From: Octopus sinensis
Lineage: Eukaryota
Direction of reading: 5' to 3'
DNA: 64,000 bases
Assembly: GCF_006345805.1 (NCBI RefSeq)
Contig: NC_042997.1
Coordinates: 199,640,001 to 199,704,000, forward strand
Below, piece by piece: positions 16,627 through 60,391 of the stretch; position 1 is the stretch's first letter; each line of letters starts with the position of its first letter. Position numbers and translations under genes: made by a program. Under the pieces are notes generated by a model. That model saw nothing but the letters and a program-made list of their open reading frames with translations, did not search any database and was not told the origin of the DNA.

Positions 16627-16729
16627 AATATTTATTAATGTTTGTTTTTATGTTGAGTTATAATAAAAACAATTTCACATTAAGCTAAGGAATTACTCAA
16701 TATTTTTTTGTAAAGTACATATATATATA

Positions 16730-16844
16730 ATACTTTTACAAGAAGTGGGGTGATAGTGACTTCGAAGTTTCAGCCAACTAGCTTTCGTGAGACCAGTCTG
16801 ATGAAACATTGAAATCCCTGTCACCTCTCTTCTTGTAAAAGTAT
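16730..16844. mobile_element. Mini fold-back element with two degenerate hammerhead ribozymes
   Basis: Arms ATACTTTTACAAGAAG.. / ..CTTCTTGTAAAAGTAT; minus strand reads TGGT CTCACGA A AGCT AGTT GGCT GAAAC TTCGAA GTC ACTA; second copy at 18989-19098. Confidence 0.75.
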
Positions 16845-16857
16845 AATATATATACAT

Positions 16858-17710
16858 AGGCTCAAGTATGGCTGAGTGGTGAGAAGTTTACTTCCCAACC
16901 ACATGGTTCTGGGTTCAGTTCCATTGCATGGCACCTTGGGCAAGTGGCTTCTACTATGGCCTTGGGCCAACCAAAGCTTTGTGAGTGGATTTGATAGACT
17001 GGAAACTGAAAGAAGTCTACATATATGTATCATCATCATTATTTAATGTCTGCTTTCCATGCTGGCATATGTTGGACCGTTTGACTGAGGACTGGCAAGC
17101 CAGAAGGCTGCATCAGGCACCAGTCTGATCTGGGAAGATTTCTACAGCTGGATGCCCTTCCTAACACCAACCGCTCTAAGAGTGTAGTAGGTGCTTATTA
17201 CGTGCCACCAGCATGGGACCCAGTCAGACAGCACTGGCATCAACCACGCTCAAATGGTGCTTTTTACATGCCACCAGTATGGGTACCAGCCTGGCAGCAC
17301 TATCATCAGTCACAACAATGATTTCACTAGACTCAACAGGTTTTCTCAAGCACAGTATATCTCCAAAGGTCTCAGTCGCTTGTCATTGCCTCTGTGAGGC
17401 CCAATATTCAGTGGTCATGCTTCACCACCTTATCCCATATATATATTACACACATGTATATATATGTACATATATGAGTGTGTGTGAATGTATCTTTATG
17501 TCTGTATTTGTCCCCCCCACCACCACCACTGCTGCTTGAAAACCAGGGTTGGTATGTTTACATTCCTGTAACTTAGTGGTTCAGTAAAAGAGACTAATAG
17601 AATAAGTACCAAGCTTAAAAAGAAATAAGTCCTGGGTCAACTTATTCAACTAAAATTGTTCCAGGTGGCGCCCTGGCATGGATGCAGTCTAATGAATGAA
17701 ACAAGTGAAG
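16858..17710 (+). mobile_element. SINE family B with a nested family C copy (17030-17435, minus) in its microsatellite
   Basis: Head 16858-17025 and tail 17480-17710 separated by family C sequence. Confidence 0.8.
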
Positions 17711-17963
17711 GATATTCTCTCTCTCTCTCTCTCTAAGGCACACACATACATACACACATTTGGGTACATACTCTTTTACTCGTTTCAGTCATTTGACTGC
17801 GGCCATGCTGGAGCACCGCCTTTAGTCGAGCAAATCGACCCCGGGACTTATTCTTTGTAAGCCCAGTACTTATTCTATCGGTCTCTTTTGCTGAACCGCT
17901 AAGTGACGGGGACGTAAACACACCAGCATCGGTTGTCAAGTAATGCTAGGGTGACAAACGCAG

Positions 17964-17994
<31 letters not shown>

Positions 17995-18052
17995 ACATTA
18001 TTGGTGAATTGAAGAAATGGAGCTGAACGCAGATTGAACAGAAATCGTTTTA

Positions 18053-18141
18053 TTTCATTCTACACGTGTTTCGAAAGGCACAAATTACCAAAATCCGATT
18101 GAATAATGGGACCATATTGTGTCTTTCTCTTCAGGAAGAAA
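18053..18141 (-). ncRNA. Type I hammerhead ribozyme, intact core
   Basis: Minus strand: TTTCTTC-CTGAAGA-GAAAGACACAA..TTGTGCCTTTC-GAAA-C-ACGT-G-TA-GAATGAAA; stems I, II and III pair; GUA triplet; predicted cut between 18061 and 18060. Confidence 0.85.
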
Positions 18142-18311
18142 AAGGAAATCCGTTGGAAAAACAAAAACAGAACAGAGGCAGAGCAAAAAACAAATCGAAC
18201 TGTGCTCCTAAGAGCCCATGGCGAAACTCGCCATGGGCTCTTAGGAGCACAGTTCGATTTGTTTTTTGCTCTGCCTCTGTTCTGTTTTTGTTTTTCCAAC
18301 GGATTTCCTTT

Positions 18312-18399
18312 TTTCTTCCTGAAGAGAAAGACACAATATGGTCCCATTATTCAATCGGATTTTGGTAATTGTGCCTTTCAAAACACGTGTAGAATGAAA
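18312..18399 (+). ncRNA. Hammerhead ribozyme copy with G12->A core mutation (predicted inactive)
   Basis: CTGAAGA at 18319-18325; GAAA replaced by AAAA at 18380-18383; AATAAA immediately downstream. Confidence 0.75.
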
Positions 18400-18608
18400 T
18401 AAAACGATTTCTGTTCAATCTGCGTTCAGCTCCATTTCTTCAATTCACCAATAATGTTTTAATTTCAATTATCCGCACCAACGCACGGTTGCAACGCCAG
18501 ATGGTTGTACCTCCAACCGTGCTGTTCACTGCTGTGATTTTTGCTACTAAGGTATCGGTTAAACTTTTGATTAATCTACTACAAGATTATTCATCTTTCT
18601 ATTTCACA

Positions 18609-18613
<5 letters not shown>

Positions 18614-18660
<47 letters not shown>

Positions 18661-18666
18661 TATATA
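18614..18666. repeat. (TA)n microsatellite
   Basis: Seen directly. Confidence 0.95.
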
Positions 18667-18988
18667 CGACAGGCTTCTTTCAGTTTCCGTTTACCAAATC
18701 CACTCACAAGGCATTGGTCGGCCCGGGGCTATAGTAGAAGACACTTGCCCAAGATGCCACGCAGTGGGACTGAACCCGGAACCATGTGGTTGGTTAACAA
18801 GCTACTTACCACACAGAAATTACAAAATTAAGTAGTACATTTTCCAAACATACAGTTGTGAGTTCAGTCCCACTGTGTGACACTTTATGGAAGCTCTTTC
18901 CCCTATAGCCCTGAACCAATCAATGACTTGTGAGAGAATATGGTAGACATTAACTGAAAGAAACCTGGTGTGTGTGTGTGGGTGTATT

Positions 18989-19098
18989 ATACTTTTACAA
19001 GAGGGATAACAGTAACTTCAAAGTTTTAGTCTGCTATTTTTCATTAGACAGTATGAAAGAGGCTAGCAGGCCAAAACACTAAAGTCACTGTCACCCTT
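18989..19098. mobile_element. Second, more decayed copy of the mini fold-back HHR element
   Basis: ATACTTTTACAAGAGGGATAACAGTAACTTCAAAGTTT..AAACACTAAAGTCACTGTCACCC aligns to 16730-16844. Confidence 0.65.
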
Positions 19099-41924: not shown

Positions 41925-42421
41925 TCCTGGACACATCACTCGTATAAAGAAGTTCATCAATTTTTCAGTGACAGTTCTCCAAAATCAGTTGATGCATTTT
42001 CATGATGTTTTCATTTGTTTAGAGGGTTGATGTTTGCCCTGAATGAGATTGGTCTTCAAGTGACAAGTGACCATTCCTAAAACATGAAAACCACTCATAA
42101 ACTTCTGCTTTGCTCATGGCAGCATCCTTGTAAGCTGTTTGAAGCATGGCAACTGTTTCAGCCACCATTTTCCCTAGCAGAAAACAAAATTTCATGGAAG
42201 CATGCTGTTCCTCTCTTTCAGCCATTGCAAAAATGGACAAACAGAGAAGAAGCATTGCAAAAAAAAAATGCACCACATGGCAGTATGCCTTTTCTCGACG
42301 ATGTTGGTTGGCAGACTGATGCCTGAAGATTGCATCAAGTGAATTCTAGTGGTGGAACCTGAACTATAGCATGCTTGTCCCACAGAGAATATTTACAGTT
42401 ACTTTTGGGTATCTCCTCAAA
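41925..42421 (-). mobile_element. mariner remnant (5' end and HTH domain)
   Basis: EQHASMKFCFLLGKMVAETVAMLQTAYKDAAMSKAEVYEWFSCFRNGHLSLEDQSHSG matches the mariner transposase N-terminal HTH pattern. Confidence 0.85.
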
Positions 42422-57984: not shown

Positions 57985-58400
57985 TGTGACATAGCTTTGT
58001 ATAGAAGTTTGCTTTCACAGCCATGCAGTTTTGGTTTCAGTCATACTGAACGACACTTGAGACAAGTGTCTTCTGCTACAGTGTTGGGTTGACCAAAGCC
58101 TTGCAAGTTTGTTTGGTAGATGGAAACTGAAAGAAACCCTATATGTATATATTCTTTATTCATTTACTAGTTTCAGTTATTTGACTGTAGCCATGTTGGA
58201 GCACAACCTTGAAGTGTTTTAACTGAATAAATTGACCTCTGGACTTAATTCTTAAGCCTAGTACTTATTCTATTGGTCTCTTTTGCTGAACCGCTAAGTT
58301 ATCGGTACCTAAACACACCAACACCAGTTGTCAAGAGGTGACGGAGGGAGACAAGCAGAGACACAAAGACATGCATACGCACACATACACACACACACAT
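57985..58400. mobile_element. Family B head (+, 57985-58150) abutting a family B tail (-, 58155-58400)
   Basis: Motif matches to other B copies. Confidence 0.75.
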
Positions 58401-58414
58401 GCAAATGTAGAGAG

Positions 58415-60070
58415 AGAGAAACTACGGAGAGAAAGGATTCTAAAACCTTCTATGACGGCCTCAAGAAAGCGCATGGTCCTCAAGAGCACGGTGTTACTCC
58501 TATTTTTTCATCGAATAGAGACACTGCTGACGGACAAATATGACATCTTGAAACAATGGAAAGACCACTTTGGAGCCGTGTTGAACTCCACCTCAGTCAC
58601 TAATGATAACGTCATAACGGCTATTCCACAGCACACTGAAATATTGGAAATATCTCTGGAGGCAACCTTCCTGGAAGTGGTGAACCCCATTAAACAGATC
58701 TCCTCAGGTAAAGTGCCTGGCAGGGATACTGTCCTGCCTGAAATCTAAAAGCATGGTGGACAGAAGCTTTTCAAGAAATTGCATGACCTCTTCATAAATA
58801 TCTGGAGGGTAGGCTGTGTACCACAGTACTTTAAGGATGCCTCAATTCAACATCTTTATAAGAACAAAGGAAACAGAAGTGTCCATGATTAGGCAGCAAG
58901 CTGGCAGAATCGTTAGCACACCGGGCAAAATGCTTCACGGTATTTCGTCTGCCGCTACATTCTGAGTTCAAATTCCACCGAGGTCGACTTTGCCTTTCAT
59001 CCTTTCGGGGTTTATTAAATAAGTACCAGTTACACACTGGGGTTGATTTAATTGACTTAATCCGTTTGTCTGTCCTTGTTTGTCCTCTCTGTGTTTACCC
59101 CCTTGTGGGTAGTAAAGAAATAGGTATTTTGTCTGCCGTTACGTTCTGAGTTCAAATTCCACTGAGTTCGACTTTCATCCTTTCAGGGTCGATAAATTAA
59201 GTACCAGTTACACATTGGGGTCGATGTAATCAACTTAATCCCTTTGTCTGACCTTGTTTGTCCCCTCTATGTTTAGCTCCTTGTTGGCAATAATGAAATA
59301 AGAAGTGTCCATGATAATCATTGTGGGTTATCACTTCTGTCTTTTGCTTGTAAGATTCTTGCTCGACTCATTCTTGACAGGATCATCAAACATGTTGTAA
59401 ATGACATCTATCCAGAATCACAGCACAGATTTCGTTCTGGTTGTAGCACTATCAAGATGATCTTTTCTCTCTGTCAGGTCATTAAAGAGGTACAAGAGAA
59501 AAATCAAGAGTTGTTCAAGGTGTTTGTTGACCTTACTAAGGCCTTCAACACTTAACTGACAAGTATTTTGGAAAGTTCTGAAAAAGCTTGGTATACCTGA
59601 GAAGACGTTGAATGTTATTTCCTTTCATGAAGGAAGGAATCTTGTTGTCATGTCCAGCAGGAAAGTTTTGGCTTCCTTCAATGTTACAAATGGCACAAAG
59701 CAAGGTTGCGTTATGGCCACTGTATTTTTGCACTTTTTTTTTCAGTGGTGCTGAGGCATGCTTTTGGTGACATACAAAGTGGTGTCAAATTCCAGTTTCG
59801 AATAAGTAGTGGACTATTCAATCATCAGTGTTTCAAAACCAAAACATTGCTATTCACCAGTACCATTCGTGATCTGTTTTTTGCAGATACTGCATGAGTG
59901 ATGACCTCCTTAGAGGAAGCTCAAGGACTTCTAGACCAGTTTTTTTCTTGAATGTAAAGCCTCTGGTTTGACCATCGCCCTACTGCTAAGCAAATTCGAG
60001 GTGTCAATCAGAAGCCACCGGTTCACAATTTCCCTGACACTCCTATACAGGTTTAAAGGAAAAACCTGAA
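58415..60070 (+). mobile_element. RTE-clade (BovB-like) LINE RT region, pseudogenised
   Basis: LLTDKYDILKQWKDHFGAVLN..IKQISSGKVPGRD..PEI*KHGG..PQYFKDASIQHLYKNKGNRS/NHCGLSLLS..YPESQHRFRSG..FVDLTKAF..NGTKQGCV..IRDLFFAD. Confidence 0.92.
58890..59300 (+). mobile_element. Dimeric SINE family A insertion with 15-bp TSD
   Basis: AGAAGTGTCCATGAT at 58875-58889 and 59301-59315 encloses a full unit plus a 5'-truncated second unit from ~59123. Confidence 0.93.
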
Positions 60071-60071
60071 G

Positions 60072-60391
60072 TTTTCGTACAGAGATATAAAAATTCATGC
60101 AAATTCATGGTTGAATTAAATTAATTATATATCACTATACTCTTCAGTGCAAGAAGTATAAACAAAATTTTTATAAAGGACTTGAGAAAGGAAAAAGCAG
60201 AATAGGATCTAGGATACGTATTTATCCTTATGAGAAAAAGAGATGCGAGTCCAGTTAGGTATTAACTATAACGAGTTATAGTTAAATTTTGTTCATACTT
60301 CTTGCATTGAAGAGTACAGGGATATATAATTAATTTAATTCAACCATGAATTTGCATGATTTTATACCTCTGTATGAAACGATCATCTCCA
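60072..60391. mobile_element. Fold-back element with ~98-bp arms carrying two hammerhead ribozyme remnants
   Basis: Arms 60073-60170 and 60284-60379. Plus strand: TGCA-TTGAAGA-GTACAGGGATATA..TATACCTCTGTAT-GAAAC-GATC-ATC-TCCA. Minus arm keeps CTGAAGA..GTAC-GAAA. Confidence 0.8.

Follow-up and report, generated by a model that had tools for sequence, protein, structure and literature searches.

Several peculiarities of insertions made by Penelope-like elements (PLEs) are already in print, namely an inverted pseudo-LTR (pLTR) with a tail and head-to-head palindromes (PMC3846280), inverted 5'-truncated copies with a tail and a bias toward (TA)n (PMC8557442), and pairs of hammerhead ribozymes on opposite strands, 100-700 bp apart (PMC4209133). 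The minimal hammerheads of PLEs have been proposed to pair as dimers, and their activity in vitro is low (PMC4209133). The PAc protein, encoded by a Poseidon PLE of Anolis carolinensis, acts on AT-rich DNA, both strands of which it cuts and extends; it uses two internal reverse transcription (RT) start sites whose spacing equals the tail, is predicted to form a dimer, and is associated with a protein-assisted ribozyme whose cleavage is unneeded for insertion (PMC11167929). In Penelope of Drosophila virilis the pLTR contains an internal promoter of the Inr/DPE type (PMC2377424). Head-to-head palindromes have been explained by self-priming on an antisense template, a matter left open by Arkhipova and colleagues (PMC3846280, Discussion), and both the formation of inverted copies and the purpose of the hammerhead are stated to be open questions in PMC3846280, PMC8557442 and PMC11167929. 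In O. vulgaris, PLEs account for 6.83% of the assembly (PMC13282606, supplement).

The locus described here lies in a window of 64,000 nucleotides of Octopus sinensis (contig NC_042997.1), the whole stretch of DNA that was analysed, and all coordinates refer to that window. It is one of thousands of copies of a described kind, and its value is that of a clean record of PLE integration. We consider it highly probable that it holds one recent insertion of a high-copy hammerhead repeat, likely the pLTR of a PLE, in which a shorter inverted copy and a longer direct copy stand head-to-head in the (TA)n tract of a SINE.

An inserted palindrome with a one-sided extension

The inserted unit is 620 bp long and contains a palindrome of 465 bp, with arms of 231 bp each (17994-18224 and 18228-18458) on either side of AAC at 18225-18227; alignment returned the coordinates that an earlier, sequence-only reading had given. 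It is the sole near-perfect long inverted repeat in a window-wide inverted-repeat comparison, at 97.7% over 473. Four more repeats have arms no further than 300 bp apart, and these reach 69-78%. By alignment the left part is an inverted, shorter copy of the element on the minus strand (17994-18228, comprising the arm 17994-18224 and an apex at 18225-18228), a cDNA likely primed at the left cut end. The direct copy, on the plus strand, consists of a portion mirrored by the left arm (18228-18458) and an extension of 154 bp, or tail (18459-18612), that only this copy possesses. Translation of 18501-18557 on the plus strand gives a possible ORF start in the tail (ATG, 17 codons), with a putative donor-like AAG/GTATCG behind it at 18552. 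Mirror symmetry stops at the element boundary. The equal terminal inverted repeats and discrete target-site duplication (TSD) of a MITE/TIR element are not found, the 154-bp extension lying outside the repeat and the junctions being variable. Elsewhere in the window, 60073-60379 is a 307-bp AT-rich MITE-like element with long imperfect terminal inverted repeats (77%).

In the alignment the arms differ by one substitution, C at 18072 against the base at 18380, and by an indel of one base in each of two homopolymers (18082; 18314). The substitution turns G12 of a hammerhead into A at 18380, at a CpG site; the sequence-only reading had recognised it correctly and had left the two indels out. At 0.0036 substitutions per site per million years, a rate quoted in PMC13282606, the arms would be 0.6 My old (0.02-3.4) from the one substitution and 1.8 My old (0.4-5.3) from all three differences.

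Both flanks are halves of one minus-strand SINE. Its 3' part (17769-17976, minus) forms the left flank and ends in a (CA)n run, and its 5' part (18667-18816, minus), identified by BLAST comparison with paralogues, includes a B-box-like GGTTCAGTCC at 18776. Between these halves and the element lie the left (17977-17993) and right (18613-18666) parts of a (TA)n target tract, a microsatellite that gives no readable separate target-site duplication. Five of the six SINE paralogues tested in the window continue straight from the left-flank into the right-flank sequence, joining the two halves within 10 bases, and the sixth consists of the left part only. This empty site places the 620-bp unit as an insertion in the internal (TA)n tract of the SINE, and both element ends lie in (TA)n, the AT-rich target expected of an EN+ PLE. 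Insertion into (TA)n had thus been read rightly from the letters. The supposed youth of the SINE is not supported, its paralogues being only 61-80% alike. The host SINE presumably resembles the common octopus SINE. Older partial SINE copies, in inverted orientation and about 69-76% alike, flank it on both sides (17535-17712 and 18841-18967) and could add dsRNA in a read-through transcript.

The hammerhead ribozymes

Each arm carries a hammerhead that faces away from the centre of the palindrome. The minus-strand copy (18053-18141) has the CUGANGA / GAAA / UH core, the three helices and the open helix I of a type I hammerhead, with CUGAAGA at 18134-18128, GAAA at 18072-18069 and a GUA site at 18063-18061, after which (3' of 18061) cleavage is predicted. 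Its stem II has 11 bp, one A-C mismatch and a 33-nt insert, its stem III 2 bp with the loop ACGU, and its stem I 3+4 bp with a bulged U. A hammerhead descriptor matched the window once, here, and had 0 matches in each of 30 shuffled windows. The core, stems and GUA site are those that the sequence-only reading had proposed, along with a type I hammerhead in each arm. The plus-strand copy (18312-18399) departs from the type I core at G12 (G12A at 18380) and, by alignment, is one base short at 18368/9 in the stem II region; it is predicted to be near-inactive, G12A slowing cleavage 500-fold to a million-fold (PMC2553840).

A search with the Rfam hammerhead models, the check suggested in the sequence-only reading, did not call the ribozyme. 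The Rfam scan gave no match at the gathering score. Over 17900-18700 a hammerhead was absent at E<=10 as well, and the matches that did appear, all under the cut-off, were to generic hairpin (miRNA) models. Applied to a 116-nt stretch alone, RF00163 gave a weak alignment of 14.8 bits against a cut-off of 34 (E 0.44), with all 45 model positions aligned, and the shortfall arises because stem II contains a 51-nt insert.

The self-complementary ACACGUGU at 18062-18069 (A15.1 to U16.1) is predicted to form an 8-bp intermolecular helix III (duplex -10.3 kcal/mol), and two copies of the hammerhead cofold at -45.3, against -33.0 for two monomers, by pairing through it. The palindromic helix III and loop 3 that permit a dimer in PLE minimal hammerheads are therefore present, and the extra base between 9 and 10.1 is absent, stem II following directly after CUGAAGA. 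In the monomer fold stems I and III have a pairing probability below 5%, and the active fold costs 3 kcal/mol. The hammerhead as a whole is not unusually stable (z -0.22; the stem II domain stands at 15 of 300 shuffles). Cleavage would accordingly require a dimer or the help of a protein, and would take place in RNA begun at the apex or from other copies.

A second, older fold-back flanked by (TA)n occurs at 16720-16854, with arms of about 60 bp that are 78-82% alike and a CTGATGA..GAAA-like stretch at 16798-16814. It has a single-arm relative at 18989-19056 and is possibly the decayed end of another PLE family.

A young and abundant repeat family

Sampled words of 18228-18612 were present at 63-93% in 20 of 24 listed public sequencing runs, from 10 studies, and the contigs of four of the 20 (X1, X13, X7 and X18) were aligned to 18192-18612. 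X1 alone gave 6,023 contigs, 4,576 of them at least 95% alike, with a summed depth of about one million over 18297-18600, tail included, summed contig depth being a different quantity from copy number. The element is plainly a young, abundant repeat family. A unique tail of about 155 nt had been read at this locus; the one-sided extension is real, at 154 bp, and belongs to the same high-copy element. The family ends 3' at about 18607-18612, as seen from an X13 contig that ends at 18607 and a drop of X1 depth at 18612, and an X18 contig that enters (TA)n behind 18609 represents a second copy with a (TA)n 3' end. In the other direction, X1 summed depth falls about tenfold from 18297 to 18237, most copies stopping short of the apex. 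BLAST found no second copy in the 64-kb window, and exact element patterns had no match in metagenome contigs, viral contigs or prokaryote genomes.

G12 is the family state (598,311 of 602,434 of summed depth in X1 and all of X13, X7 and X18), and G12A is private to this plus copy. The extra T of the left arm near 18368 is the form also found in X13, X7 and X18. The family is too young for stem covariation to show: no variant reaches 5% in the core or stem II, the one diverged copy being a single contig, and none of nine common family substitutions falls in the 47 bases of the core and of stems II and III; since this is expected by chance at 0.31, the conservation is not evidence of selection. 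One diverged X13 contig (depth 2.1) has ATAT in place of ACGT in loop III, still palindromic, which is a hint only.

Near-identical sequence of 18228-18612 appears in runs under eight organism labels, X13 and X18 holding the family in 2 and 4 contigs, respectively, at depths under 15. Trace host DNA fits this distribution as well as horizontal transfer does, and no transfer is claimed. That X7 and X18 are RNA is a guess, none of the listed runs with the sequence being recorded as such. In X7 a diverged sister family shares a 39-bp block, 18529-18567, with a donor-like AAG/GT inside, and differs on both sides of it; such a block suggests a conserved cis element, for example an RT binding or start signal.

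Upstream sequence and probable relationship to PLEs

In three of the four runs (X13, X7 and X18) one contig each continues upstream of 18228, with an identical 30 letters that translate as PVLNIH, two stops and TV. The GIY-YIG domains of Nematis and Poseidon end in P-x-LN (PMC8557442, supplement Fig. S7), and the upstream frame resembles the end of a Penelope GIY-YIG protein. These six codons and two stops, read from 30 letters at the contig ends, are the one link to a coding element. The hammerhead core starts about 95 bases after the candidate stops and, if the ORF reading holds, occupies the position of a pLTR hammerhead, in sense and downstream of the stop codon. An inverted, 5'-truncated copy head-to-head with a direct pLTR, as in EN+ PLEs, is likewise found.

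RT or GIY-YIG sequence was not otherwise seen, the upstream contig ends showing 30 letters, and a Pfam scan of 85 of the 106 window ORFs of at least 75 aa (most of the other 21 lay in SINEs or in overlapping frames) found no PLE domain. A 36-aa peptide from the tail had no protein relative, and a 41-aa version compared with longer proteins gave three candidates, none at E<=10, a result that weighs little either way. The window does hold remnants of other mobile elements: a decayed non-LTR reverse transcriptase at 59277-59552 (plus; RVT_1, E 5e-08) and 58290-58748 (plus), with the neighbouring frame RTE-like by eye, and a Mariner/Mos1 transposase HTH fragment at 42022-42345 (minus; HTH_48, E 3.6e-10).

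Three named elements were considered as the identity of this family and rejected: Naiad_Ovul, with its 'HHR_half_core' end, against the published consensus; Naiad_Obim, likewise a different family; and Hydra-1_Obim, which has a different hammerhead. The element's motifs were absent from two paper supplements, in which FASTA line breaks can hide matches.

The insertion behaves as that of a PLE pLTR and very likely is one; an RT-EN link would make its membership formal. A recent, non-coding, PLE-derived insertion with a minimal hammerhead of the dimer type, as the sequence-only reading had it, is supported by the family, the fold, the upstream frame and published PLE features. The element is a further PLE of the described sort, its inverted pLTR with tail, palindromes, hammerhead pairs and (TA)n targeting all having been published; the 154-bp tail, the long insert in stem II and an apex that possibly marks a start site set it apart from the described cases.

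The apex and a proposed route of insertion

The three bases between the arms, read from the letters as a loop, are no spacer and are templated by the element's own next upstream bases. The family reads ACAGTT and then TCGCC at 18228, and the window apex, AACT, is the reverse complement of AGTT, which means that the inverted copy extends 5' of the mirrored part by four bases and that the 'loop' is element sequence. On the minus strand 18225-18228 accordingly gives AGTT, the family's own upstream bases by contig ends in three of the four runs, and the A at 18228 would be the candidate +1 of an initiator-like CAGT, 3-7 bases after the candidate stop codons. At +28 to +32 from that position AGTTC (18251-18255, plus; mirror 18201-18197, minus), found post hoc, fits the DPE consensus RGWYV. 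Initiator and DPE spacing of this kind occurs by chance at 12 of 533 CAGYY sites in the window (about 2%), and the Inr/DPE consensus is that of Drosophila (PMC1538597).

Six X1 contigs join 18226-18229 to 18318, 18369, 18432 or 18522, which makes them other head-to-head junctions with the same end of the inverted arm. In one of them the two parts are separated by 12 letters; 10 of these are sense 18232-18241, the trace expected of a snap-back and a subsequent jump. These junctions were perhaps listed only because the reference included the left arm, and they could be later deletions from palindromes; a junction hotspot at 18226-18229 is not proven, a few junctions per 4-base window being expected with thousands of copies. 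Among the longest pieces listed no contig crosses the exact apex.

A route modelled on PAc would account for the architecture as follows. The element's RT-endonuclease, supplied in trans, would cut both strands of (TA)n, and each 3' end would prime cDNA synthesis from an internal position on a short RNA begun at the pLTR's own promoter. The two RT starts would lie near 18458 on the left and near 18612 on the right, the difference between them being the tail. The left cDNA would run to the RNA 5' end (+1 = 18228), and a single base of microhomology, or a snap-back, would link it to the right cDNA, giving a head-to-head palindrome with a one-sided extension, and the hammerhead would be inherited cargo.

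The main rival, which we regard as possible but on the unlikely side, keeps the same PLE origin and attributes the palindrome to self-priming on antisense RNA, as proposed in the Discussion of PMC3846280, or to host repair after insertion of a single cDNA, with the apex a random 5' truncation. The one-base microhomology fits any joining route, and the family's depth declines gradually toward the 5' end, as with random truncation. Against this rival, the apex lies 3-7 bases past the stops, on an Inr-like CAGT with RGWYV at +28, six further contigs end at the same four bases, and the single enzyme that has been tested needs no more than sense RNA as template when it extends both strands (PMC11167929).

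The two-cDNA route from sense RNA can be taken one step further, tentatively and as a proposal we hold to be quite doubtful: the apex would record the transcription start of the PLE internal promoter, short RNAs started in the pLTR having been copied twice at one double-strand cut and the cDNAs joined at the RNA 5' end, and the palindromic helix III would pair both template RNAs for a dimeric enzyme, cleavage being unneeded. If true, this would account for PLE head-to-head palindromes without antisense RNA and for the SINE-like flood of ORF-less copies. No printed two-cDNA or cDNA snap-back model for PLEs was found other than in the papers cited here, in a literature search that covered few subscription papers.

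It is improbable that the palindrome, or a circular RNA, was the mobile unit of an independent non-autonomous element of the retrozyme or MITE type. The non-coding 385-bp unit with its type I hammerhead does match animal retrozymes in size (bioRxiv 10.64898/2026.07.22.740005), and copy number is very high; against this, the locus is without tandem monomers, the upstream neighbour in three runs is an ORF-like end in place of the unit's 3' end, the junctions differ between copies, and the ends are unequal, in (TA)n, with no discrete TSD.

Potential read-through RNA

If the locus were read through, a hairpin would form, and RNA of either strand is predicted to fold at about -440 kcal/mol. The sequence-only reading expected self-cleavage to compete with ADAR or Dicer in such a transcript, an expectation that is not supported: synthesis of the complement precedes that of the ribozyme, and all but one of the 89 bases of the intact copy (88) pair with the other arm. 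In minus-strand read-through the fold model has the bases of the intact ribozyme pairing with the other arm already as they emerge, and in plus-strand read-through the only sense hammerhead is the G12A copy, which is also made after its complement. Because the sense hammerhead follows its complement in the RNA of either strand, there is little room for the proposed competition, and the hammerhead would be buried in the hairpin.

That the locus has a regulatory role, as a dsRNA whose fate is set between self-cleavage and ADAR or Dicer, is very improbable. The hairpin and the presence of family sequence in the two runs guessed to be RNA (X7 and X18) speak for it; against it stand the complete pairing of the ribozyme, the low probability of stems I and III in the monomer, contigs that cannot tell which copy is transcribed, and nothing that suggests selection at the locus, which itself most likely has no function. 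Long dsRNA is relevant to RNA editing in the host group. Insertions of this kind would be ready-made long dsRNA wherever they lie within a transcript, which for this locus is a prediction.

An assembly or library fold-back artefact is the least probable reading, for although homopolymer indels, a common error of long reads, make up two of the three arm differences and the exact apex is unspanned among the listed contigs, the mirror symmetry ends exactly at the element with two different SINE halves beyond, the apex is built of element bases missing from the direct arm, and similar junctions occur in independently assembled contigs.

Comparison with known systems

A close parallel is Penelope (EN+) of Adineta vaga, which shares a head-to-head inverted pLTR shorter than the direct one, a one-sided extension and an AT-rich or (TA)n target (PMC3846280; scheme in PMC8557442). 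The octopus insertion differs from it in being without an ORF, in its tail of 154 bp as opposed to 30-40 bp, and in a palindrome whose 231 bp run right to the apex (PMC3846280). Hydra-1_Obim, Naiad_Obim and Naiad_Ovul, probably from the same host group, share the (TA)n preference and have another hammerhead, 3' sequence and protein C-terminus (PMC8557442, supplement).

With respect to the ribozyme, the octopus copy agrees with metazoan PLE minimal hammerheads in its type I form, G10.1-C11.1, long helix II, palindromic 15.2-16.2 plus loop 3 and occurrence as opposite-strand pairs, and is set apart from them by a stem II of 11 bp with a 33-nt insert and by the lack of an extra base at 9/10.1 (PMC4209133). 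Animal non-LTR retrozymes are similar in being short, non-coding, PLE-related units with a type I hammerhead; they differ in forming a head-to-tail array, where the octopus locus has a single unit and an upstream neighbour other than the unit's 3' end (bioRxiv 10.64898/2026.07.22.740005).

With a family so young and so abundant, and an apex that can be read, both PLE questions, the formation of inverted copies and the purpose of the hammerhead, become testable by junction counts in one genome. PAc is a further parallel: internal RT starts define its tail, as they would here, its target is likewise AT-rich, and its cutting and extension of both strands would account for the octopus palindrome, while its ORF starts inside the hammerhead and the octopus candidate ATG lies 110 bases past the cleavage site (PMC11167929).
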